Below, piece after piece: positions 1,371 to 17,358 of a stretch of DNA of 17,896 bases. Where the stretch lies: UHGV virus genome UHGV-0103875. One strand, 5' to 3'. Below the pieces are notes generated by a model that saw only the letters and a list, made by a program, of their open reading frames with translations, did not search any database and was not told the origin of the DNA. The stretch comes from a virus. Both the position numbers and the translations under genes were made by a program. Numbering within the stretch: the first letter of the stretch is position 1; each line of letters starts with the position of its first letter.

Positions 1371-1555
1371 CGTCTTCCTCTCTTGCCCTGTTTGACCATC
1401 AGGACGCCGTTAACTATTACGTGACGCTCGCCTTTGCTGTCTCGGTTGTACTTGAGCACTGTTCCTCTTGCACAGGAAAGCATCCTCGCCACTTCGGTCT
1501 GATTGCCTCGTGTCTGGATAAGAAGCTCTGGTATCGTTTGAATTGTGGCGTTCAT
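1367..1555 (-). CDS. ninH: NinH-like protein
   Basis: 62 aa; TIPELLIQTRGNQTEVARMLSCARGTVLKYNRD resembles lambda NinH (…GNQTEVARRLKCSRGTVRKY…). ATGA-coupled to rusA upstream and Q downstream. Confidence 0.75.
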   Translation of the reverse strand: MNATIQTIPELLIQTRGNQTEVARMLSCARGTVLKYNRDSKGERHVIVNGVLMVKQGKRGRR

Positions 1556-1914
1556 ACGTTCTCCAGTTCGGTGATTTTTATTCCAAGCCTTCCGCCTGGT
1601 ACTTTCACACCACGAATTACGCGAATGTCATCGAATTGCTCGTCGTCTTCCGCAAATCCGGCGTGGATAAGGGAGTCGAGTAAACCTTTCAGGATGTTGT
1701 CGAGGTCGCGGCGGCGGGAGTCTGGAACGTCTGCGATGACTTTGATGCGGAGTCGTGATTTGGTGAAAATGTCTAACTTAAGTTGGCGGATGATTTGCTG
1801 AACGTCTTTTCGGTATTTCTGGCCTTTATCGCTTATGTAATATTGGCTTCCCCGTCTTCGCCAGTAGGTATTCACCGACAGCGGGTATGGAAGCACAAAC
1901 TGATATTCGTTCAT
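1552..1914 (-). CDS. rusA: RusA-family Holliday junction resolvase
   Basis: 120 aa; RRRDLDNILKGLLDSL and C-terminal GGRLGIKITE match the RusA catalytic-core pattern (RRRDLDN..K, GGRL). Typical nin-region position. Confidence 0.85.
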   Translation of the reverse strand: MNEYQFVLPYPLSVNTYWRRRGSQYYISDKGQKYRKDVQQIIRQLKLDIFTKSRLRIKVIADVPDSRRRDLDNILKGLLDSLIHAGFAEDDEQFDDIRVIRGVKVPGGRLGIKITELENV

Positions 1915-3492: not shown

Positions 3493-3665
3493 TTCCTCGC
3501 ACGATGTCTTAGCCACCGGATATCCCACAGGTGAGCCGTGTAGTTGAAGGTTTTTACGTCAGATTCTTTTGGGATTGGCTTGCGTTTATTTCTGGAGCGC
3601 TTCGTTGGAAGGTATTTGCAGTTTTCGCAGATGATGTCGGTGATACTTCGTCGCTGTCGTCTCAT
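3489..3665 (-). CDS. ninE: NinE
   Basis: [58 protein letters not shown] matches remembered lambda NinE. Start at internal ATG 3665, ATGA-coupled to the methyltransferase stop. Confidence 0.85.
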
Positions 3666-4189
3666 GCTGCCCTCCTGACGCCCTGCCCGATCGCCATCAA
3701 TGCCGCTTTGGATACGGTAGTAAACATCCGTCGAGGACTGATGAACGGTCGCCAAATCAGCAGCATGGAACCTTTGCTGTTTCCCTTCTTCTCCAGCCCT
3801 GTCGATGGTTCGATAAAATTAATCCGTCCATCAGTGATGATGCGAACTTCGTCAACACTCTCCAGAGCCTTGCTGAACCATCCGACTGACATATCCTCTG
3901 GCACAAGCATAACTACCGTCTGTCGCTGTTGTATGCACTGCTCAGCGGCTTTTTCCACCCACGGCCTGATATTGCTGTACGGTGGGTTATTCCAGATTGC
4001 ACCGTGGCTTATCCACTCAGAATTTAGCGCGTCGTCGGCCTCAGTTAACCAGTGAGCGCACAGAGCATTTTTGTCGCTCGCTGCCGAATCCAGCCAGAAT
4101 CCAAACTCAATATCCAGTGCATCAAAAAGCCAAAGCGGCGTTTGCCAGCAGTCCTTGTCGTGTGCTGGCGTATTTGATTTGATAGTCAT
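3662..4189 (-). CDS. Phage DNA N6-adenine methyltransferase (Dam-like, NPPY motif)
   Basis: 175 aa from ATG 4189. Contains the catalytic motif IWNNPPYS and N-terminal [16 protein letters not shown] typical of phage Dam-family MTases. ATGA-coupled to ninB upstream and ninE downstream. Confidence 0.75.
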
Positions 4190-4626
4190 GCAGCCCGATC
4201 TCCCCATCGCGCTTTCCATTCGAGAGCTAGTCGCGCTTCGTCTGACCACTTAACGCCACGCTCTGTACCGAATGCCTGTATAAGCTCTAATAGCTCCGCA
4301 AATTCGCTTACACGCATCCTGCTGGTTGACTGGCCTATTACCACAAAGCCATTCCCGGCAAGGTTAGGAACAACGTCCTGCTGCTTTAATGCTGCGGTAA
4401 ACACACACTTCCAGCTTTCTGCATCCAGCCAGCGACCATGCCATTCAACCTGACGAGAGACGTCACCAAGGCAAGCCCAAAGCTTTCGATTCTGGTCTAA
4501 GCTGCGGTTGCGTTCCTGAATGGTTACTACGATTGGTTTGGTTGGGTCTGGAAGAATTTGCTGTACTGCGTGAATAGCGTTTTGCTGATGTGCTGGAGAT
4601 CGAATTTCAAAGGTTAGTTTTTTCAT
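4186..4626 (-). CDS. ninB: NinB (Orf-family recombination mediator)
   Basis: From ATG 4626: MKKLTFEIRSPAHQQNAIHAVQQILPDPTKPIVVTIQERNRSLDQNRKLWACLGDVSRQVEWHGRW…, essentially lambda NinB. RBS GGGGGAGAGGG upstream. Confidence 0.9.
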   Translation of the reverse strand: MKKLTFEIRSPAHQQNAIHAVQQILPDPTKPIVVTIQERNRSLDQNRKLWACLGDVSRQVEWHGRWLDAESWKCVFTAALKQQDVVPNLAGNGFVVIGQSTSRMRVSEFAELLELIQAFGTERGVKWSDEARLALEWKARWGDRAA

Positions 4627-4641
4627 GACTTCCCTCTCCCC

Positions 4642-4673
4642 CAAATAAAAAGGCCTGCGATTACCAGCAGGCC
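4642..4673 (-). terminator. Rho-independent terminator between helicase and ninB (tR2-like position)
   Basis: Minus strand AGGCCTGC-TGGTAATC-GCAGGCCT followed by TTTTTATTTG. Perfect 8-bp GC-rich stem plus T-run. Confidence 0.6.
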
Positions 4674-4702: not shown

Positions 4703-7168
4703 TCAGAATCCTCCTTTCTTCTTGGATTGCGGTTCCTCGCGTTCACGGCGGCGCATTTCAGCAGACTGTTGGTCTGTGTCATAAATAGCGCCATTTGCCT
4801 GAATGCAATACACCGTGCCGGTATTGCCATGACGATTGAGACGAAGGATTAGTTCGGTTTCACCAGGTGGAACACTGTCATCAAAAGCACCTTCACGATG
4901 GATCCCCACCCAATAATCGCAATCCTGTTCAATCTGCCCTGTATCTCGTGAGTCACTTGGTAATGGGCGTTTATTGGTTCGGCTTTCCAGTGCGCGGTTA
5001 AGCTGTGTCAGAAGCACAACAACGCAATCAAGCTCTTTGGCAAGGTTCTTCAGTCCTTTGGTGATCATGCCGTAAGCAAGGTCGTTGCGATCGGCCTTTT
5101 CAGCGGTCATTAGTGTCAGGTAATCGACCAGAATCATGCCAACACATCCTTTTTCTCGCTTGATTCGACGGCTTTCGCTGACGATTTGAGCCAGAGATAA
5201 TCCCGGCGTGTCGTCGATGTAAAGCATGTCGATTTCACTCAAGCGATTGGCTGTTTCGATCGCCCTGTTGAAGTCACCATCGTAATCACCCTGATAGCCG
5301 TCATCAGCGTCATTTGTCGCCGGAAGGTAAAAAATATTCGGGTTAACACCAGACTTCTGCCCTACCAGTTTTTCCAGTATCTGGTCACCTGGCATTTCAA
5401 GGCTGAACATCAGAGCGGGCTTTTTCTCATGCACTGCGCAGTTGATTGCCATCTGGCTGTATAGCGTGGTGTTGTGGGTTAGAATGTATCCGTCAGTTGC
5501 ATACAAATGTCTCTCGTGGGATACCATGATGCAAATGCACTCTTCACGTCCAATATACTCAACCGACGTGATAACAGGCGCACTTGTTTTGATGCGTTTT
5601 GCAGTGAATTTTTGCTTCAGGCGTGGAGATTTTATGTGTGATAGAACCTCATCAGGCAACCTGATTGCGCAAATATGGGCATCCATACCTTTGCGCATTT
5701 CTCCCTTATAACTGAATTTCGGCTCCTGTTTGGTTGTCATACGACACACGCCACCAAGAGAATGCACCAGCCGCTTTACACCATCTGACAGGAACTTGCT
5801 TGCCGAGCTAAAGCGCAGGGCATTATTTCCTTCAACCCAACCATCGGTTTCAAGTAATCCGCATAGAACATCAATACGAGTTTGCTTATCAGCAGAAAAA
5901 ATAATATCCGGGATAATTTTAATCTCTGACATCCGGCCGTAGATACCAAGCCGTTGCATAACCCGCGTAAGAGATAATTTGCGGCTAAACTTGTGAGATA
6001 GGGAGTAATCGCAGCCAGAAACATGCCTGACTTCAATATCGTCACCCACTTCAGATCTTACTCGCTCAATGATGTATGGTTCCGTCATGCTGATTCGTGG
6101 CGTACCTGCAAGATTTCCATCGCCAAGTAACGCACCTAACAGCCATGGGCTAATCCCTAAATCAACAGGCAATCCGAAGTCACCGCTAATACCAGGAACA
6201 TGAATGCGGCTTTGATAGCGAACGCATTCCATCATGTCCCGTAGGCGGCAGGTGTCTACAACATCAACGCCACCGGTAATACGGTTACTATGAATTTCCC
6301 ACAAATGATCATCCGCGCAATCAACGGTTCTTCCGTCAGAGAACGTAACTCGGTAAATATCTCGCTCCCCTTGAGGAAAAACTCCAGACACGAATGATGG
6401 TTGTCCATCCACTGATGCTAGGGAATCTCCAACACATACGTCACGAAATGTTGTCCATGAACCATCAGCAAGCAAAATGCGTGAATTAAGCGGTTGCGCT
6501 TTCCCCATCTTAGGGCGAGCGCCAATGACGAACAGAGAGCCTTTCACCAGACCTTTCGGTGACAGCATCCTGTCCAGAGATGGGATCCCTGTGCTCATTC
6601 CTCGTTGTTCGCCTGACGGGTCAAATCGCTTCTCAAGGTCGCTAACCCAGTCTTCCATGACCTCACCAAATGAGCGAAGGCCGCGACGCGATCCGGTTTT
6701 TGCATGGTCTGTCAGTTGCGTGAAAATCGCCTGAATAGCTTCGTACTTCTGCGTCGCAGTCATTCCGTTGCGGGAATAGAGCAATTCCGTCGCTTCAGTC
6801 ATGCGGTTGATGGCGTAGCGTTCCATTGCGGTTTCGCGAACCTGCATTGCATAGGCAACGATGTTTGCGGCGCTTGCCGTGTTCTTTGCGATCTCAGCGA
6901 TATAAGCAAAACCGCCAACAGACGCCGTTAACGATTTACGCTCCAGTTCACCGAAAAGCGTCAGGCCATCTACTGGCTTTTGCTCCCGGTGCATTCTGGT
7001 TATTTCTTCGAAAAGGATTTTGTGTGGTCGGCTGTAAAATGAATCAGGCTTCAGCATCGCCAGAACTTTCTGGACGCGCTCACTGCTGTCATCATCCAGA
7101 AGCAATCCACCAATCACCGCCTGCTCTGCCTCGATGCTATGGGGCGGCGCATAAAAATTATCGGTCAT
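4703..7168 (-). CDS. DnaB-family replicative helicase (P22 gp12-like, replaces lambda P) interrupted by an intein; ORF track gives a GTG start at 7183, first ATG is at 7168
   Basis: N-terminus PPHSIEAEQAVIGGLLLDD…FYSRPHKILFEE…VGGFAYIAEIAKNTASAANI is colinear with remembered E. coli DnaB. Walker A GARPKMGK is split from TTLYSQMAINCAV…MFSLEMPG by 343 residues. C-terminal half has DnaB motifs (ILVDYLTLM, LTQLNRALESR, GQIEQDCDYW). Confidence 0.85.
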   Translation of the reverse strand: MTDNFYAPPHSIEAEQAVIGGLLLDDDSSERVQKVLAMLKPDSFYSRPHKILFEEITRMHREQKPVDGLTLFGELERKSLTASVGGFAYIAEIAKNTASAANIVAYAMQVRETAMERYAINRMTEATELLYSRNGMTATQKYEAIQAIFTQLTDHAKTGSRRGLRSFGEVMEDWVSDLEKRFDPSGEQRGMSTGIPSLDRMLSPKGLVKGSLFVIGARPKMGKAQPLNSRILLADGSWTTFRDVCVGDSLASVDGQPSFVSGVFPQGERDIYRVTFSDGRTVDCADDHLWEIHSNRITGGVDVVDTCRLRDMMECVRYQSRIHVPGISGDFGLPVDLGISPWLLGALLGDGNLAGTPRISMTEPYIIERVRSEVGDDIEVRHVSGCDYSLSHKFSRKLSLTRVMQRLGIYGRMSEIKIIPDIIFSADKQTRIDVLCGLLETDGWVEGNNALRFSSASKFLSDGVKRLVHSLGGVCRMTTKQEPKFSYKGEMRKGMDAHICAIRLPDEVLSHIKSPRLKQKFTAKRIKTSAPVITSVEYIGREECICIMVSHERHLYATDGYILTHNTTLYSQMAINCAVHEKKPALMFSLEMPGDQILEKLVGQKSGVNPNIFYLPATNDADDGYQGDYDGDFNRAIETANRLSEIDMLYIDDTPGLSLAQIVSESRRIKREKGCVGMILVDYLTLMTAEKADRNDLAYGMITKGLKNLAKELDCVVVLLTQLNRALESRTNKRPLPSDSRDTGQIEQDCDYWVGIHREGAFDDSVPPGETELILRLNRHGNTGTVYCIQANGAIYDTDQQSAEMRRREREEPQSKKKGGF
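5471..6499 (-). mobile_element. Intein (343 aa) with LAGLIDADG homing-endonuclease domain, inserted in the helicase P-loop; candidate class 3 (Ala1, W-C-T triad)
   Basis: Insert begins AQPLNSRILLADGSW immediately after GARPKMGK and ends …ATDGYILTHN followed by Thr (HN/T C-terminal splice junction). Two LAGLIDADG-type motifs inside (WLLGALLGDGNL and LCGLLETDGWV). Block B has …DDHLW, block F …CICIMV, block G GYILTHN, consistent with a Trp/Cys/Thr class 3 arrangement. Flanks rejoin to GARPKMGK-TT, restoring a canonical GKT P-loop. Confidence 0.75.
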
Positions 7169-8057
7169 CGTGTTCACCCTCACGAACTTTCAGGTAGGTA
7201 TTATCGTTAAGCAGGAAATCAAATCCCTTTTTGTGCCAGACGGTTCCGCGCTGATGGTTTTGGCGCTCTTCGAACATCCATCGGCAATTTTCGCCTACGT
7301 AGCTCAAATAATTTCTCCAGTCCTGCATCGTGAACCCATGCCCGTCAAGCTGGCGGGTTATCACTCCGGCTTTGCGCCAGAACGTTCGGATCTGGTTTTT
7401 ACGCTTGTCATTCAGTGCGCGGATTTTTGGCGCTTCAGGAAGGATTTCGTGGTAAGCATCGACAACATCCTGACAGCTAACGGAAGGTTTTTTCTTGTCA
7501 GACTTTTTGTCTGCTGCGGTACTCTCTAATACGTCAGTATTAGAGATAATATTATTATATTCTTTATCTGTGGTAATTTGCTGGTAATCTGCTGGTACAG
7601 TATTGCTTGCAGGCATTGGTATTGCTGGCTTTGAGGTGGTAATTTGCTGGTAATCTGCTGGTACAAAATTTGACTGATAATCGTCATATTTCTCTACCGA
7701 GAAAACTGAGAATTTACCGTGTGAAACCCAGTCAATCATGCCGAGTTTTTTGAACTTTCTAAGCAGGTACTGAACGCGATCTGGTTTGAGTCCTGTTTCA
7801 AACGCCAGAGAGTTTCTACCGCCAAGTAGCTTCCCTCTGCCTACCAGAATTTCTCCTGCGTCAGTCATTACATACTCAGGCGTATGCTTTGCTTTGAGGA
7901 TTAAGTGAACCCACAGATGCGCAGCTTCTGCGTCCTTGTAAAACGGCACATCCATAATTTTACGGTGCAGCAAGGCATACCCCTTACCGCTGCTTTGATG
8001 CGGTTGTTGTAGCCTTCTGGCCTCTCTGGCTTCGGCTAGATTAGATATGTTACTCAT
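7158..8057 (-). CDS. Replication initiator (lambda O / P22 gp18 functional analogue) containing the origin iterons
   Basis: 299 aa; position between cII and the helicase. Central peptide repeat [10 protein letters not shown] x2 is encoded by the DNA iterons. RBS AGGAGAAAGG before ATG 8057. Confidence 0.7.
7541..7667. repeat. Candidate replication origin: direct iterons (TGCTGGTAA/C-type, two copies of a ~30-bp unit GTGGTAATTTGCTGGTAATCTGCTGGTACA) with adjacent AT-rich tract
   Basis: Unit GGTAATTTGCTGGTAATCTGCTGGTACA occurs at ~7573-7600 and ~7638-7665; each holds two TGCTGGTA sub-repeats; a degenerate copy ATTGCTGGC at ~7621. AT-rich stretch AGAGATAATATTATTATATTCTTTATCTG at 7541-7569 lies on the downstream side in the O reading direction, as in lambda ori. 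Confidence 0.65.
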
Positions 8058-8925: not shown

Positions 8926-9642
<717 letters not shown>

Positions 9643-9792
9643 TGGGCAAGGTGTTCTGGTCGGCGCATAGCTGGTGAAAAAATTATTTAATGCGGTGTAT
9701 TGGCTGATTGTAACCCCATGTAACATCTTGCCGTCACCATTTCGGTGGTTAGATTTTTAATAAAAAAAAACAAATGTATAGCAAGGTTTTTT

Positions 9793-10272
9793 ATGGATAA
9801 AATTAATTACCCACCCCTGTTTGAGCCAGGGTTCCATGACATGGATGAAGCTGGATTAAAATCGTATTGTGTCGATTGCTTTCCTTCATCATCCAGGCGA
9901 GGCATGCTATACTGTAATTTTATACAGCTACTCGAATCTATTCGAGAATTATCTGCTCAATATGGCTGTTTTACAGAAATATGGGTTGATGGTTCATACA
10001 CCACGTCTAAACCAGAGCCTGATGATATTGATATTTTGTTGGTATGTGACTATAGCAATATAAACTCAATACCTGTCATGCTTCGGGGCCGCGTCGATAA
10101 TTTGCTTGACCGAAACTACATCAAACAAAACTACAAAATTGATGTCCTACTACTCATGAAGAATTTAGATGACCCTAACTATGATTATGAGTACTGGCGT
10201 AGTTACTGGCGCGGTTGGTTTGGTTTTGATCGCAGTGAAAACCCGAAAGGGTTAGTGAGGATTTTTTTATGA
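9793..10272 (+). CDS. Hypothetical protein, gene A of the rex-slot cassette (~159 aa); possible minimal nucleotidyltransferase-fold protein
   Basis: First ATG at 9793 with AAGG six nt upstream; ORF track extends to GTG 9745. Contains WVDGSYTTSKPEPDDIDILLV, fitting the Pol-beta NTase pattern hG[GS]-x9-13-DhDh. Also CVDC…C. AT-rich compared with the flanking cI. Not RexA. Confidence 0.55.
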   Translation: MDKINYPPLFEPGFHDMDEAGLKSYCVDCFPSSSRRGMLYCNFIQLLESIRELSAQYGCFTEIWVDGSYTTSKPEPDDIDILLVCDYSNINSIPVMLRGRVDNLLDRNYIKQNYKIDVLLLMKNLDDPNYDYEYWRSYWRGWFGFDRSENPKGLVRIFL

Positions 10273-11201
10273 ATGATAAATCAATGTTTAAAAATTGCGA
10301 TAAACGCATTGATTTCATTCAAAAAGAAGTCGATGCAATGAAGCAAAACAAAACCAGGTCCTTTGCTGACATGCTTCTTTATCGCTCCATGGATTCTCAT
10401 CTGAGCGATTTGAAGGCCGAAAAATTAAAGCAAGATAGTCGGCACCCACTTATCGATTTTTTTGAGCTGCGGCTGAAAGGCTCTGAGGTTGACTTTGGCT
10501 CTATTCCTTTAGAGCTGCTTGGGGCTATTTCAACAAATCTTGCAGCGCTAATACAAAGAGCAACACACAAAATTGCCTCAGGCAAGGACTCAAAAAAAGT
10601 TCCCTACGACGTGAAAAGCTCCTTAAACCTCAGGCTGGCTGATTTATCCCCTGGGTCTACAAAATTGGGCGTCACCTTCTCTACAGGAATAGCAGAATTA
10701 GTAGAAACAGTACCCAGCAAGGCTGTAAAAGGCATATTCGATTTGTTGTTAAGCGATGACGACAACAACTTCATGAATCACGTCGCTGAAATTGGATACA
10801 ATTCCACTGTAAGCCTTAAGAGAATCGTAGAGGAATGCGATAAACACAACTTAACATTTGATGCAAGTTGGACCGGTCCATTTAGTAATGGCACCAAGGT
10901 GGCAACTATTGACTCCAATAAAATTAAGTACTTGGTGAGTAGACTTACATCAACCATTTCATCCCCTCCCATTACTGAAACGGTTACAGGCGAACTGGTC
11001 GTTCTATCCAAATATGGGAAGCTGGAGCTTGATGTTGGTGGTGAACATTTAAAGGCTTCCTATCCGATTGAAATGCTAGATTTAATACAAAAAAAACACA
11101 AGGTCGGACAGATTGTTTCTCTTTTAGTGGAGACTACTGAGATTCACAATGATCGCATAGGTCTGTACCGTAAAAACCATCTTGTTAAATCGGTTCTTTA
11201 A
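10269..11201 (+). CDS. Hypothetical protein, gene B of the rex-slot cassette (310 aa), no recognised domain
   Basis: ATG overlaps the gene A stop (ATGA). Soluble-looking, Lys/Ser/Leu-rich, AT-rich codons. No RexB-like transmembrane pattern and no HEPN Rx4-6H motif found by eye. Confidence 0.6.
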   Translation: MNDKSMFKNCDKRIDFIQKEVDAMKQNKTRSFADMLLYRSMDSHLSDLKAEKLKQDSRHPLIDFFELRLKGSEVDFGSIPLELLGAISTNLAALIQRATHKIASGKDSKKVPYDVKSSLNLRLADLSPGSTKLGVTFSTGIAELVETVPSKAVKGIFDLLLSDDDNNFMNHVAEIGYNSTVSLKRIVEECDKHNLTFDASWTGPFSNGTKVATIDSNKIKYLVSRLTSTISSPPITETVTGELVVLSKYGKLELDVGGEHLKASYPIEMLDLIQKKHKVGQIVSLLVETTEIHNDRIGLYRKNHLVKSVL

Positions 11202-11518: not shown

Positions 11519-11690
11519 AGCATTCAAAGCAGAAGGCTTTGGGGTGTGGTGAAGGGTTCATGGATGGGAATATGTCGCACGTAAAGCGGCGAGGCCTGCG
11601 GAACTATTGCCGAATTGAAGTCGGCCGAAGCAGGTCGAAATGGGTCTCCCACCTACCACACCACCAAAGCTAACTGACAGGAGAATCAAG

Positions 11691-12017
11691 ATGGATGCAC
11701 AAACACGCCGCCGCGAACGTCGCGCAGAGAAACAGGCTCAATGGAAAGCAGCAAATCCCCTGTTGGTTGGGGTAAGCGCAAAACCAGTTAACCGCCCTAT
11801 TCTCTCGCTGAATCGCAAACCGAAATCACGAGTAGAAAGCGCACTGAATCCGATAGACCTTACGGTGCTGGCTGAATACCACGAACAGATTGAAAGCAAC
11901 CTGCAACGTATTGAGCGCAAGAATCAGCGCACATGGTACAGCAAGCCACGCAGTGAAATGGGTGTGACTTGTGTTGGTCGCCAGAAAATGAAATTAGGCA
12001 GCAAACCACTTATTTGA
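11691..12017 (+). CDS. N: Antitermination protein N (lambda type); upstream ORF-track extension rejected
   Basis: From ATG 11691: MDAQTRRRERRAEKQAQWKAANPLLVGVSAKPVNRPILSLNRKPKSRVESALNPIDLTVLAEYHEQIESNLQRIERKNQRTWYSKP…, with the arginine-rich boxB-binding motif at the N-terminus. Confidence 0.95.
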   Translation: MDAQTRRRERRAEKQAQWKAANPLLVGVSAKPVNRPILSLNRKPKSRVESALNPIDLTVLAEYHEQIESNLQRIERKNQRTWYSKPRSEMGVTCVGRQKMKLGSKPLI

Positions 12018-12025
12018 GGTGAGAT

Positions 12026-12496
12026 ATGACAAAATCATGGAGTGTACCTTTTCCTGAATCAGAAACTGAACATGATGGAATGCCTGTTTTCTGGAGATTC
12101 CAGGCGACAGTTGAAGAAGATGGAATCAAAATATTCGCACTTCAATATATAGCTTTTCATCAGACAGAGCATTATGCATGGTTGGTTCCTGCGCATTGGA
12201 TTGTTAATTTTAAACCAGCACCAAATCAGTGGTTACAGGAATGGAAACAAAAGAGAAATAGATATGCAATTAAGAAAGTAGCAAAAAATGCAGAAAGATC
12301 TTTTGCATTCCCAACGAAGAAACTTGCCATTGAAAGTTTATTGCGCCGGAAGAAATACCATTTAATGAGAATCAAACAAGATTTGGCTGTTGCATCAACT
12401 CTTGTTGATGGGATGAAGAATATTGATACATCAACACCAGATATTGAATATAACTTTGGACACAACCAAGAAACAGAAAATTGGGTATTTTATTAG
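12026..12496 (+). CDS. Hypothetical protein (156 aa) directly downstream of N, in the lambda sieB/ral position
   Basis: Starts 8 nt after the N stop. AT-rich, Trp-rich (WSVPF, FWRF, WLVPAHWIVNF, WLQEWKQK); no recognised family. Confidence 0.6.
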   Translation: MTKSWSVPFPESETEHDGMPVFWRFQATVEEDGIKIFALQYIAFHQTEHYAWLVPAHWIVNFKPAPNQWLQEWKQKRNRYAIKKVAKNAERSFAFPTKKLAIESLLRRKKYHLMRIKQDLAVASTLVDGMKNIDTSTPDIEYNFGHNQETENWVFY

Positions 12497-12639
12497 TACA
12501 AATAAGCACTGTGTATTCATTCCAACGAGTGAATACACGGAGCAATGTCGCTCGTAACTAAACAGGAGCCGACTTGTTCTGATTATTGGAAATCTTCTTT
12601 GCCCTCCAGTGTGAGGGCAATTTTTTTAACGGGGGAAAT

Positions 12640-13608
12640 ATGAGTGAAGTAACAGATTTAGTTGTTATTGAAAAAGCAAATGCAATGACTGTATTTCAGT
12701 CTGCCGATCAGATTGAAGAAATCCTTCAAAAGGTTGAACGTGAAGTTATGTCCTTTGTGCCTGATATCACAACGGCAAAGGGAAGAAAGGAGATCGCTTC
12801 TCTGGCGTATAAAGTTGCGCAGACGAAAACATATCTCGATGGTCTTGGCAAAGACCTTGTTGCTGAACTGAAGGAAATTCCAAAGCTAATTGATGCTAAC
12901 CGCAAGACAGTGCGTGATCGCCTTGATGAGCTGAAAGCCAAGGCACGCCAGCCTCTTACTGATTATGAGGAAGAACAGGCGCGGATTAAAGCCGAAGAAG
13001 AAGCTAAGGCAGCAGCTGAAGCTCTCGCAAAGCAAATTGAGTCTGACCATGAAATAGCGATTTTGATGGATCGCGAATTTGACCGCCAAAGAGAAGAGGC
13101 AAGACTCAAAGCGGAGCAGGAAAAGCGAGAGCATGAAGAACGCTTAAAAAGAGAAGCTGAAGAGAAAGCCAGAGCTGAAGCCGAAGCAAAGGCAAAAGCC
13201 GAAATTGAAGCAGCAGCAAGGCGAGAAGCAGAAGCTAAGGCCGCAGCGGAACGTGCAGAGCGTGAACGCATTGAAGCCGAGCAACGAGCACAGCGCGAAG
13301 CAAAAGAGGCAGCAGAACGAGCTGAAAGAGAAAAGCAGGCAGCAATTGAAGCAGAACGCCGAAAAGCACAGGAGGAGGCAGAACGAATCCGGCGCGAGGC
13401 TGAAGCAAAAGAGCAAGCCAGAATAGCAGAAGAAAAAAGAATCAAGGACGAAGAAGAGCGTAGAGCAAAGGATAAAGCTCACCGGAGAGAAGTAAATAAC
13501 AAAATACTTGCTGACCTTATCAAGGTTGGCGCATCAGAAGATGTTGCTAAAAATATCATAATAGCCATCGCAAAAGGCGAAGTATTCGCAACAAAAATAA
13601 CCTACTAA
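12640..13608 (+). CDS. Highly charged coiled-coil protein (~322 aa) with long E/A/K/R-rich repeat region
   Basis: Start ATG 12640 preceded by GGGGGAA; the ORF-track N-terminal extension is rejected. Central ~180 aa are quasi-repeats of AEAKAKAEIEAAARREAEAKAAAERAERE… flanked by ordinary N- and C-terminal segments. Confidence 0.6.
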   Translation: MSEVTDLVVIEKANAMTVFQSADQIEEILQKVEREVMSFVPDITTAKGRKEIASLAYKVAQTKTYLDGLGKDLVAELKEIPKLIDANRKTVRDRLDELKAKARQPLTDYEEEQARIKAEEEAKAAAEALAKQIESDHEIAILMDREFDRQREEARLKAEQEKREHEERLKREAEEKARAEAEAKAKAEIEAAARREAEAKAAAERAERERIEAEQRAQREAKEAAERAEREKQAAIEAERRKAQEEAERIRREAEAKEQARIAEEKRIKDEEERRAKDKAHRREVNNKILADLIKVGASEDVAKNIIIAIAKGEVFATKITY

Positions 13609-13632
13609 TAAAACCAACATAAGGAACCACCC

Positions 13633-13803
13633 ATGATTTACGCAATCGCGGGAGGCGCTCGCATGGGTGCCTTCCAACTAAATGAATCTTTACTTGAACG
13701 AATCACCCGTAAATTACGTGACGGATGGAAACGCCTTATCGACATACTTAATCAGCCAGGAGTCCCAAAAAATGGATCAAGCACTTATGGCTATCCAGAC
13801 TAA
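13633..13803 (+). CDS. cIII: CIII (FtsH inhibitor, protects CII); below the ORF-track size cutoff
   Basis: Translates MIYAIAGGARMGAFQLNESLLERITRKLRDGWKRLIDILNQPGVPKNGSSTYGYPD; the C-terminal 40 residues are nearly identical to lambda CIII. RBS AAGGAA upstream. Confidence 0.85.
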   Translation: MIYAIAGGARMGAFQLNESLLERITRKLRDGWKRLIDILNQPGVPKNGSSTYGYPD

Positions 13804-13885
13804 ATTCACTATCGCCACTTTTATTGGCGATGAAAAGATGTTTCGTGAGGCCGTAGAAGCCTACAGAAAATGGAGGTCAAAATGA
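13772..13885 (+). CDS. kil: Kil-like small protein (host cell-division inhibitor family)
   Basis: Internal ATG of ORF 13682..13885 gives MDQALMAIQTKFTIATFIGDEKMFREAVEAYRKWRSK, resembling the remembered lambda Kil N-terminus. Overlaps the cIII 3' end in another frame. Confidence 0.55.
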   Translation: MDQALMAIQTKFTIATFIGDEKMFREAVEAYRKWRSK

Positions 13886-14070
13886 TTCCGGTAGAACTGG
13901 CGAAAACTCCAGAGTTAAGTCGATTAAAAAGAGAATATCACATTGCTGAGGCTCGTTACTGGCGTAAAGCGGGAGATAAATCAAAGAAACAACTTTGTTT
14001 ATGGCAGGCGCAAAGAGAGCGCATGAATGAGCGCGAATTTCTTTCCTCCCCATCCGAATTACCATTCTGA
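13882..14070 (+). CDS. Hypothetical small protein (62 aa)
   Basis: ATG 13882 with GGAGG five nt upstream and ATGA overlap with the kil-like stop. Basic, helical-looking (…RLKREYHIAEARYWRKAGDKSKK…). Confidence 0.45.
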   Translation: MIPVELAKTPELSRLKREYHIAEARYWRKAGDKSKKQLCLWQAQRERMNEREFLSSPSELPF

Positions 14071-14078
14071 GGTGAATT

Positions 14079-14759
14079 ATGGGAACTGCGACATTAATAC
14101 TCGGTGAATCTGGCACCGGAAAATCAACCAGCATGAGAAATATCAATCCAGAGGAAGCAATACTTATAAAACCAATAGGCAAGCCGCTTCCATTTAAATC
14201 AAAAGACTGGCTGGCATGGGATGCCAGAGCAAAAAAAGGAACCGTAGTTACCACTGACAAATGGGACGTAATAGTTGCCGTAATTAAGCGTGCTCACGAA
14301 TACGGGAAAAGAATCGTTATTGTTGATGACTTCCAGTATGTGATGAGCAATGAGTTTATGCGCCGCTCAGAAGAAAAGTCGTTTGATAAATTCACTGAGA
14401 TAGGCCGTCACGCATGGGAGGTCATTAAGGCTGCACAGGATGCGCCTGATGACCTGAGAGTCTATTTTCTTGCGCACACCGAAGAAACTCCTATGGGGCG
14501 TGTGAAAATGAAGACTATCGGCAAAATGCTGGACGAGAAAATCACTGTCGAAGGCATGTTTACTATAGTTCTTCGCACCCTTACCCGTGATGACCAGTTC
14601 TTTTTCACCACAAAAAACAACGGTGCAGACACTGTTAAATCCCCAATGGGAATGTTTGACTCCAATGAGATTGATAACGATCTCTCTTTCGTCGATACCA
14701 CTATTTGTGATTACTACGGCATCAATAATGATCATCAAATTAAGGAAAACGCCGCATGA
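14079..14759 (+). CDS. RecA-like P-loop ATPase, candidate Sak4-type single-strand annealing/recombination protein
   Basis: Walker A GESGTGKST at residues 9-17 and Walker B RIVIVDDF; ~226 aa, the size of core-only RecA-like phage Sak4 proteins. Occupies the position of lambda Red. Confidence 0.5.
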   Translation: MGTATLILGESGTGKSTSMRNINPEEAILIKPIGKPLPFKSKDWLAWDARAKKGTVVTTDKWDVIVAVIKRAHEYGKRIVIVDDFQYVMSNEFMRRSEEKSFDKFTEIGRHAWEVIKAAQDAPDDLRVYFLAHTEETPMGRVKMKTIGKMLDEKITVEGMFTIVLRTLTRDDQFFFTTKNNGADTVKSPMGMFDSNEIDNDLSFVDTTICDYYGINNDHQIKENAA

Positions 14760-15343
14760 GCAACGTGATTTTTACTTATAACGAAGAAGCAGCACTGACC
14801 GCAGGGCAAGGTGGTTTTATTAACGAAACTGGCGCTCATATCATTACCATTACTGAAGCAGAACTAAAGCAATCAGAAAAAGGAGCCAAATTTATTGAGT
14901 TTTCTGGCGAATCCGACGACGGACGTAAAATCCAATATCTTAGCGTCTGTGTTCAGAAAAATGACGGAACGGAAAACAAATTTGGCGCAAATGTCGTTCA
15001 CGCCATGATGGGGTGTGCCGGGATTGGACAATTAACGCAGCATATGGTTTCCGCCAGTAAATTTGTTGCTCCTGAGTTTCACGGAAAGAAAATCGGGTTA
15101 GTGCTACAGAAAGTATTAACCACAAACAAAAAGACTGGTGCAGACAGTTACCAGATGGAAATACGCATCCCGTTTATTGCACAAACAGGTCAAACACTTA
15201 AAGAAAAGGCGGAAGGCAAGCAACCAGAAACTATCGCCAACATGGTTGCCAGCCTCAAAGATAAAGACAATCGCTCTAAAAACGTAAGCCAGAATCATGC
15301 AGATGATTATGGTTACAGCCAGAACGATTACCCTCCTTTCTGA
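14756..15343 (+). CDS. Putative SSB-like partner protein (195 aa) with acidic C-terminal tail ending DYPPF
   Basis: ATGA-coupled to the ATPase. The C-terminus …HADDYGYSQNDYPPF resembles the SSB interaction tail (DDDIPF). Body is not recognisably a canonical OB-fold by eye. Confidence 0.35.
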   Translation: MSNVIFTYNEEAALTAGQGGFINETGAHIITITEAELKQSEKGAKFIEFSGESDDGRKIQYLSVCVQKNDGTENKFGANVVHAMMGCAGIGQLTQHMVSASKFVAPEFHGKKIGLVLQKVLTTNKKTGADSYQMEIRIPFIAQTGQTLKEKAEGKQPETIANMVASLKDKDNRSKNVSQNHADDYGYSQNDYPPF

Positions 15344-15366
15344 TTACTGAAAATAAGGCTCCCATT

Positions 15367-15663
15367 ATGCCAGCGCCTCTGTATGGTGCGGATGACGCTC
15401 GCCGCTGTTCCGGCAATTCCATATCGGAGGTGCTGGAAAATATCAAGAATAATCTCGACGCGTTTCTTGCTCTGCCACCAGAAACAAAAGAAGAACGGAA
15501 GTACCGACGCGATATACAACTCGCAGAAAAACAGGAAAAAGACAGAATAAACGAAACATCAATCCGACCATTCCGCAAATTCACATATACCCACTTCCCT
15601 GAATATATCGACCCGCGCCTGCGTAATTACCGCTCACGCTATGGCGCTATCAGTAATGACTGA
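15367..15663 (+). CDS. Hypothetical protein (98 aa)
   Basis: Complete ORF in the same orientation as the operon; no recognised motifs. Confidence 0.4.
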
Positions 15664-15673
15664 GGAATTTACC

Positions 15674-15841
15674 ATGAGAGGACTTGCATACAATCCCGGC
15701 ATTCTTCCGGCAGAAATGATTATTCACCAACGCGTAAAGCCAATGCCATCGAGAGAAGAATTGCTTAAGAGAAATAGTTTCGGTTCTGTTAATGACAACA
15801 AATATCTGAATGCGATGCGGCGCAAAGGAGGCAACCAGTGA
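15674..15841 (+). CDS. Hypothetical small protein (55 aa from ATG 15674)
   Basis: GAGGA RBS seven nt upstream of ATG 15674. C-terminus …RRKGGNQ is encoded by the conserved junction module shared with the next cassette boundary. Confidence 0.4.
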
Positions 15842-16563
15842 GCGAAATTAACTATAAAGAACTGCGCGAGGCGGCGAAACAGGCAACGCAAGATGAATGG
15901 GTAGCATATATTTTGCCGGGTCATAACGGCATTTATCCTGCGCGCACGTCTGAGGGTAGGCATTGCGGATACTTTATTGACTGGCCTAGCGTCTGTCAGG
16001 GGCGGGAGAGCATCAACATGAGCATCAGAACCTACGCAGTGAATTGCAATGACGCATGGCTAAACACCGAAGGTGATGACATCTCCGGCTCATACGTTAA
16101 GTACAAAGACCATCAGGAAGTGGTTGCCGCTCTTGAGGCCAAGTGCGCGGCGCTGGCGGCGGAGAATGAGCTGGCTCGTAAGGCAGTTCAGGCATTCTGC
16201 GATGTTGTTGGCGACAACACCGAGGTTATCGCTGAGGAGGTTGGGCGAGATGGCGTTCTGGTTATTTTGGGGGCCATGAAGGCAACAGGAAATATTTCAG
16301 CCACCGATGCTTTTCTGGCTGAAATTCGTGCGGAAGCACGCAACGAGGGGATTAACTATACCGCCAGCCGTCTTGCTGCTGCGTTCAATCACGGATTTAT
16401 CAATAAATCTTTGCGTGAAGTTTTCGACGTTACACGCATGATTTTGTCAGCGAAAGAAGAGTTGGCTAATGAACCGCATCCGATTGATGGCCTGTCCGGT
16501 GAATATGCGGAGAAATCCCTTGAAGAATGGGCGGAACAGATTCGCAAAGGAGGCAAGCAGTGA
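15838..16563 (+). CDS. Ead/Ea22-like protein (241 aa), GTG start
   Basis: GTG 15838 with AAGGAGG six nt upstream and GTGA overlap with the preceding stop. N-terminus [21 protein letters not shown] is the Ead/Ea22-type signature and is paralogous to the ORF at 16861. Confidence 0.6.
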
Positions 16564-16860: not shown

Positions 16861-17358
16861 ATGAACAAGATTGACTATCAGGCACTGCGTGAGGCGGCAG
16901 AGAAGGCAACGTGGGGAGACTGGGACTCATATAAACCACACCGTGGCGCACGTGGTTATGAGGTCCGACTAAGTAGTCAGGCCATTGCGCAACACGTTCT
17001 GAAAAACAACGCTGAATTTATTGCTGCCTTTAATCCAAAGATTGCTTTGGCACTACTGGATGAACGGGAAAGGAACCAGCAATACATCAAACGCCGCGAC
17101 CAAGAGAACGAGGATATTGCGCTAACGGTAGGGAAGCTGCGCGTTGAGCTTGAAGCAGAAAAACAGCGGGCAAAAGTTCTATTTATGGAAAATGCTCGGC
17201 TTAAGTCAGGCATAGCCGGTCTGATACACCTCGGTATTCGATATGCAGATGTTGAGGTCATGAAAATTGCTGGAGATGCCCAGCTTTCTACCCCATGCAC
17301 TGACAGCATCATAAATAGCATTACAGCAGGTATTTTCACCAAAGAGGGGGCAGCATGA
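16861..17358 (+). CDS. Ead/Ea22-like protein (165 aa)
   Basis: N-terminus MNKIDYQALREAAEKATWGDWD is paralogous to the 15838 ORF; coiled-coil middle (…LRVELEAEKQRAKVLFMENARLK…). Confidence 0.6.
   Translation: MNKIDYQALREAAEKATWGDWDSYKPHRGARGYEVRLSSQAIAQHVLKNNAEFIAAFNPKIALALLDERERNQQYIKRRDQENEDIALTVGKLRVELEAEKQRAKVLFMENARLKSGIAGLIHLGIRYADVEVMKIAGDAQLSTPCTDSIINSITAGIFTKEGAA

Follow-up and report, generated by a model that had tools for sequence, protein, structure and literature searches.

The window, which is the whole 17.9-kb stretch of viral DNA that was analyzed, contains two open reading frames on the plus strand at 14079-14759 (226 aa) and 14756-15343 (195 aa), which we named sak4 and ssb. 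The stop codon of sak4 overlaps the start codon of ssb by 4 nt (ATGA at 14756-14759), and a GAGGTG Shine-Dalgarno sequence is located 6 nt 5' of the sak4 ATG. The genes of this region are the following.

13633-13803, plus strand: cIII, a 56-aa ORF at the same position as HK620 cIII, upstream of the module
13772-13885, plus strand: kil, 37 aa, as HK620 kil (114 nt); the start at 13772 is probable
13882-14070, plus strand: hkaM homolog, a small protein, first gene of the Rec module, between kil and sak4
14079-14759, plus strand: sak4 (hkaL homolog), a RecA-core-only, putatively ATP-dependent single-strand annealing protein, its function assigned by near-identity to HK620 HkaL
14756-15343, plus strand: ssb (hkaK homolog, "SSB-2", NCBI DUF669), an OB-fold, putative ssDNA-binding protein with a disordered tail ending in NDYPPF
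15367-15663, plus strand: abc2, a predicted anti-RecBCD protein (RecBCD modifier), last gene of the module, which starts 24 nt past 15343

Minus-strand ORFs within 14079-15343 (e.g., 14367-14738, 123 aa) were taken as shadows of the coding strand.

An earlier reading, made from the sequence only, had placed cIII and a kil-like ORF upstream of a P-loop protein of about 226 aa, with the motifs GESGTGKST and IVIVDDF, that was coupled to a 195-aa protein ending in DYPPF. Our analysis confirmed this arrangement, with exact coordinates and the ATGA overlap. The kil product matched Pfam Lambda_Kil (E = 9.1e-21, residues 32-62 of the ORF at 13682-13885) and PHROG 2461 (E = 2.2e-41), and in related loci the gene 5' of kil bears Pfam Lambda_CIII. 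The module had been described as a pair of genes; both are present, but abc2 after ssb and the 62-aa hkaM homolog between kil and sak4 had been omitted. The ATG of the hkaM homolog overlaps the kil stop codon (ATGA), and its product is identical to HK620 HkaM in 61 of 62 residues (98%; PHROG 1723, E = 2e-33).

Phage HK620 (AF335538; PMC5928155) has the same order, hkaM-hkaL(sak4)-hkaK(ssb)-hkaJ(abc2), downstream of cIII-kil, and its sak4 (681 nt) and ssb (588 nt) genes are as long as those of the window and likewise overlap by 4 nt. The four genes hkaM-sak4-ssb-abc2 very probably make up a homologous-recombination (Rec) module of the HK620 type, belonging to a lambdoid phage or prophage. We are similarly confident that pL drives the transcription of this module, downstream of N, cIII, and kil, and that it occupies the position of gam-bet-exo in lambda. 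Gene order and translational coupling, like the identities, motifs, and folds given below, were observed in the window module itself.

The flanks of the module differ from those of HK620: in the window, cI and cro are of the lambda type, the set of ea genes is another one, and other genes lie between N and cIII. Two genes lie between N and cIII on the plus strand, at 12026-12496 (phrog_1636, 156 aa) and 12586-13608 (phrog_1376, 340 aa), and their products had no match in Pfam, NCBIfam, or PADLOC. The phrog_1376 protein has a long, highly charged, coiled-coil-like segment rich in Glu, Ala, Lys, and Arg, and is called "TolA protein" in some records.

Sak4 and its HK620 counterpart

An HMM search had been proposed as a check on the sequence-only reading. 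In PHROG, residues 1-220 of Sak4 aligned with positions 1-218 of the 219 in phrog_2872 ("Sak4-like ssDNA annealing protein", E = 4.9e-108), and SSB matched phrog_743 ("single strand DNA binding protein", E = 1.8e-66), values far too small for the observation to be fortuitous. Sak4 and HK620 HkaL share 222 of 226 residues (98.2%), and none of the four substitutions relative to HK620 (D43E, T207A, I209V, and D218V) falls on an invariant column. The Walker A motif GESGTGKST occupies residues 9-17 and the Walker B motif IVIVDDF residues 79-85; G9, S11, G12, G14, K15, D83, and D84 were invariant among 32 homologs.

The Pfam matches of Sak4 were weak and of a generic P-loop kind (AAA_24, E = 5.1e-07; AAA_22, 3.9e-06; ABC_tran, 0.022; Zot, 0.086), an NCBIfam search returned no match, and SSB had no Pfam match at all; therefore, the public names are "AAA family ATPase" and "DUF669/hypothetical". 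Such matches, together with the NCBI cluster name, would suit a generic P-loop or AAA ATPase acting in helicase loading, packaging, or transport, next to a 195-aa protein that modulates RecBCD as Abc1 does. The original annotation of HK620 in 2001 indeed labelled these genes erf and abc1 by their position (PMC5928155). That assignment was already refuted by the biochemistry of the HK620 proteins (PMC5928155), and we consider it almost certainly wrong. A defence-system reading of Sak4 and SSB was also rejected, as a PADLOC scan gave P-loop noise for Sak4 and no match for SSB.

Neither Sak4 nor SSB had a significant match in a sequence search of PDB chains, so the question of their folds required structure prediction. 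AlphaFold2 models of SSB and Sak4 were built on alignments of 31 and 32 homologs, and both were confident. The best structural match of the Sak4 model was a solved Sak4, followed by RecA, RAD51 paralogs, and RadB. The Sak4 of a staphylococcal phage (PDB 8rc5, in complex with SaPI2 Stl; PMC11846896) was 13% identical to that of the window in a structural alignment. The model has the RecA-core fold and lacks the additional DNA-binding domain that RecA/Rad51 carries at the N or C terminus. The 4-nt overlap with ssb also gives the window gene a family trait, the adjacent phage ssb. We conclude with high confidence that the 226-aa protein is a Sak4-type annealase, and from the 98%-identical HK620 protein it would be expected to carry out ATP-dependent ssDNA binding, annealing, and recombineering.

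The Sak4-SSB pair of HK620 was characterized biochemically and genetically (Hutinet et al., 2018; PMC5928155). Its proteins differ from those of the window by 4 and 1 residues, so the description of the module as "less characterised" is out of date, and the recombineering assays that had been suggested (each protein alone, both together, and with the SSB tail deleted) were already published for HK620 (PMC5928155). ssDNA binding and annealing of complementary strands by HK620 Sak4 need ATP, and the protein neither catalyzes strand exchange nor stimulates RecA (PMC5928155). Oligonucleotide recombineering rose over background 15-fold with sak4 alone and 210-fold with the whole HK620 module, and sak4 plus ssb sufficed for the full 210-fold level; ssb alone had no effect, and abc2 was without effect in this assay (PMC5928155). 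Removal of the last six residues of SSB (NDYPPF) caused a 10-fold loss of recombineering and abolished the binding of Sak4 to SSB-coated ssDNA (PMC5928155).

The SSB partner and its tail

Window SSB is identical to HK620 HkaK in 194 of 195 residues (99.5%), including the NDYPPF tail. The sole difference is E153, which is V in HK620; E is the consensus of the family. The protein ends in ...SQNDYPPF, and its tail (...DDYGYSQNDYPPF) is the same as that of HK620. The AlphaFold2 model showed an OB fold, with residues 177-195 disordered (pLDDT below 50).

NCBI names the 99%-identical SSB cluster "DUF669 domain-containing protein", and the DUF669 assignment of these proteins is also given in PMC5928155. 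The copy of Pfam-A that we used returned no family for SSB even at E <= 10, and NCBIfam likewise returned none; the absent DUF669 match probably reflects a difference between libraries or versions, or a filter effect, and is not biological. There was also no match to a Pfam SSB profile. The protein thus resembles an SSB in its OB fold and in its tail, yet it is not a member of the canonical SSB family at the sequence level. The PHROG assignments, the 98-99.5% identity to HK620, and the folds all confirm the core proposal of the sequence-only reading, namely that a Sak4-type annealase and a cognate SSB-like partner occupy the lambda Red slot.

The closest solved structural neighbour of the SSB model was PrgE of plasmid pCF10 (PDB 8s4s; PMC11137577), with 14% identity. 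PrgE was described as a filament on both ssDNA and dsDNA (PMC11137577), whereas HK620 SSB was reported to be tetrameric (PMC5928155). Because this closest neighbour is not a tetrameric SSB, and because the family also serves RecT-type annealases, HkaK-type proteins could form a distinct "annealase-loading" class of OB-fold proteins, with a DNA-binding mode unlike that of canonical SSB and interchangeable between unrelated recombinase folds. We regard this as improbable.

Among the 31 aligned SSB homologs, the terminal Phe was invariant in 30, with an acidic residue before it. The tails vary (NDYPPF, YGSDSF, DDDIDF, FEQF, and QDF), and the acidic residue and the terminal Phe are constant; the tail of E. 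coli SSB is DDDIPF (PMC5928155). In the Stx phage P13374 (1067-3588), recT-exo, accompanied by a gam-like gene, is followed directly by the gene for an SSB 87% identical to that of the window, and 62 phage records hold an SSB variant of 80-90% identity. The RecT-linked SSB of P13374 differs from the window SSB in its last six residues (YGSDSF versus NDYPPF). We rejected the idea that the tail tracks the recombinase partner, since the DDDIDF, QDF, and FEQF tails are still coupled to Sak4 homologs (53-82% identity). Since the family accompanies both Sak4 and RecT, a single type of SSB serves two annealase folds that are unrelated to each other.

The SSB might accordingly be a general-purpose component of such modules, serving any annealase present and perhaps also those host proteins that recognize the tails of SSBs. 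The P13374 arrangement, the 62 records, and the constant ends of the tails, which resemble that of E. coli SSB, are consistent with this. However, the stimulation of HK620 Sak4 is direct and depends on the tail, about 80% of sak4 genes adjoin an ssb (PMC5928155), and sak4 and ssb are translationally coupled both in the window and in relatives at 53-82% Sak4 identity. We consider a general-purpose role rather unlikely, and we treat the SSB as the cognate partner of Sak4.

RecBCD control and proposed mechanism

The last gene of the module encodes a protein whose residues 1-98 matched positions 1-97 of the 97 in Pfam PF11043 (Anti-RecBCD_p2; E = 2.8e-42, 143.2 bits against a cut-off of 25), and it also matched PHROG 656 (E = 2.2e-48). 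It is identical to HK620 Abc2/HkaJ in only 71 of 98 residues (72%). The four substitutions in Sak4 and the one in SSB lie outside conserved positions. Abc2 binds RecBCD via RecC and blocks Chi activation (PMC12315714). Among the 13 ORFs of the pL operon from N to the end of the window, no homologs of Gam, Bet/RecT, or Exo were found in Pfam, and a PHROG scan of 10 of these 13 gave no match to them. The claim that no Gam-like RecBCD inhibitor is encoded here thus holds with respect to homology, but the abc2 gene immediately downstream means that a RecBCD modifier is present. The window has no Chi sites (GCTGGTGG); with 0.43 expected, their absence carries no information.

Lambda Red (Gam-Bet-Exo) and the Arf-Erf-Abc1-Abc2 genes of P22 share with the window module the slot in the pL operon and the job, namely ssDNA annealing and control of RecBCD, and Abc2 (PF11043) is common to the window module and P22. 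Unlike in lambda and P22, the annealase of the window is a RecA-fold ATPase and not a Rad52-like Bet or Erf; it is predicted to be ATP dependent and to need a dedicated SSB, and there is neither an Exo nuclease nor a Gam homolog.

The mechanism that we propose is taken over from the HK620 proteins, which are 98-99.5% identical to those of the window. The phage SSB would coat ssDNA, and the NDYPPF tail of the DNA-bound SSB would recruit Sak4. Sak4, as a RecA-core-only ATPase, would then bind ssDNA in a reaction requiring ATP and anneal complementary strands. It would support oligonucleotide recombineering and low-level RecA-independent recombination, without strand exchange. Abc2 would bind the RecC subunit of host RecBCD and block Chi activation. 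No nuclease gene is part of the module; for this reason, Abc2 is thought to convert RecBCD into an end-resecting enzyme that supplies the ssDNA. Near-identity to the HK620 proteins is our basis for ascribing to the window proteins an ATP requirement, annealing activity, a function of the tail, and an effect of Abc2 on RecBCD.

The main role of Sak4-SSB inside the phage could instead be replication: the pair would drive the transition to rolling-circle or recombination-dependent replication and the formation of concatemers, with recombineering as a by-product. According to the account of Neamah et al. (2017) given in PMC5928155, Sak and Sak4 of staphylococcal phages are essential for growth, genome multimers are barely made without them, and ssb phenotypes are similar and weaker. 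Genes of lambdoid Rec modules have been implicated in the theta-to-sigma switch (PMC12315714), and the Sak4-SSB module is located in the early pL operon. This is, however, a question of biological purpose, and the same annealing biochemistry fits it. The window brings replication genes of its own, an O-like gene and one for a DnaB-type helicase, and in the literature consulted we found no evidence that HK620 growth requires Sak4. A primarily replicative role is a tentative possibility, and an annealing and recombination module remains our preferred reading.

The DnaB-family replicative helicase is a phage protein of 826 aa encoded at 4703-7183 on the minus strand. It matched TIGR03600 (E = 1.5e-166) in two stretches, at approximately residues 1-229 and 572-794, which are separated by an insert of about 340 aa. 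This insert had weak matches to intein-containing proteins, whereas P of HK620 (1437 nt) is an uninterrupted gene. The helicase looks like an intein-interrupted protein.

Genomic context and distribution

The other genes identified in the window included the following.

852-1370: Q antiterminator
2201-2923: Rha/KilAC antirepressor
3662-4249: Dam methyltransferase
15838-16563 and 16861-17358: two Ead/Ea22-like genes

The nin region encodes NinB (4186-4644, minus strand; Pfam E = 1.3e-54), which we take to be a recombination mediator of the lambda Orf family. It also encodes the Holliday-junction resolvase RusA (1552-1914, minus strand; E = 1.5e-15). NinB and RusA may provide further recombination functions outside the Rec module and act with Sak4 and SSB. 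Between the lambda-type cI (8929-9642) and N (11640-12017), at the position of rexA-rexB in lambda, there are two overlapping plus-strand genes (9745-10272 and 10269-11201). Their products matched both components of the PADLOC candidate system PDC-M63 (M63A, E = 2.4e-41; M63B, E = 7.5e-45) and had no NCBIfam match; this PDC-M63-like candidate pair is probably a prophage-carried defence moron.

When the window was compared in full with phages and complete E. coli genomes, no record reached a coverage of 80%, and the best covered 56%. The window is an ordinary lambdoid mosaic, in which the repressor and Cro are of the lambda type and the Rec module is of the HK620 type.

The module itself is widespread. 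The region 13600-15700 matched 343 phage records, of which 64 covered at least 80% of it. These 64 included HK629, JEP4, APC_JM3.2, and dozens of Stx1a/Stx2a-converting phages. In these phages, nucleotide identity to the window is 95-96% across 96-100% of this region, and Sak4 and SSB are 97.8-98.7% and 98.5-100% identical to those of the window. None of the phage records listed covered more than about 40% of the whole window, which is a different mosaic around the same module. The RefSeq annotation of HK629 already reads "Sak4-like ssDNA annealing protein" and "single strand DNA binding protein". All four genes were found, at a coverage of at least 80%, in 180 of 5,426 complete E. coli genomes, and the protein clusters that share 98-99% identity with those of the window contain 1,036 (Sak4) and 1,407 (SSB) member sequences. 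Relatives from Salmonella, Citrobacter-like, and metagenomic sources keep the sak4-ssb pair and its 4-nt overlap, even where Sak4 identity is as low as 53%.

The sak4-ssb module is thus already known: the pair was characterized in 2018, and HK620 Sak4, SSB-2, and Abc2 are among the Rec-module components of lambdoid phages catalogued in 2025 (PMC12315714). The proteins that bear the public labels "AAA family ATPase", "ATP-binding protein", "DUF669", and "hypothetical protein" can safely be renamed as a Sak4 annealase and its cognate SSB, and abc2 should be annotated as belonging with them to one module. The case illustrates the swapping of a whole recombination cassette at the Red locus of lambdoid phages.
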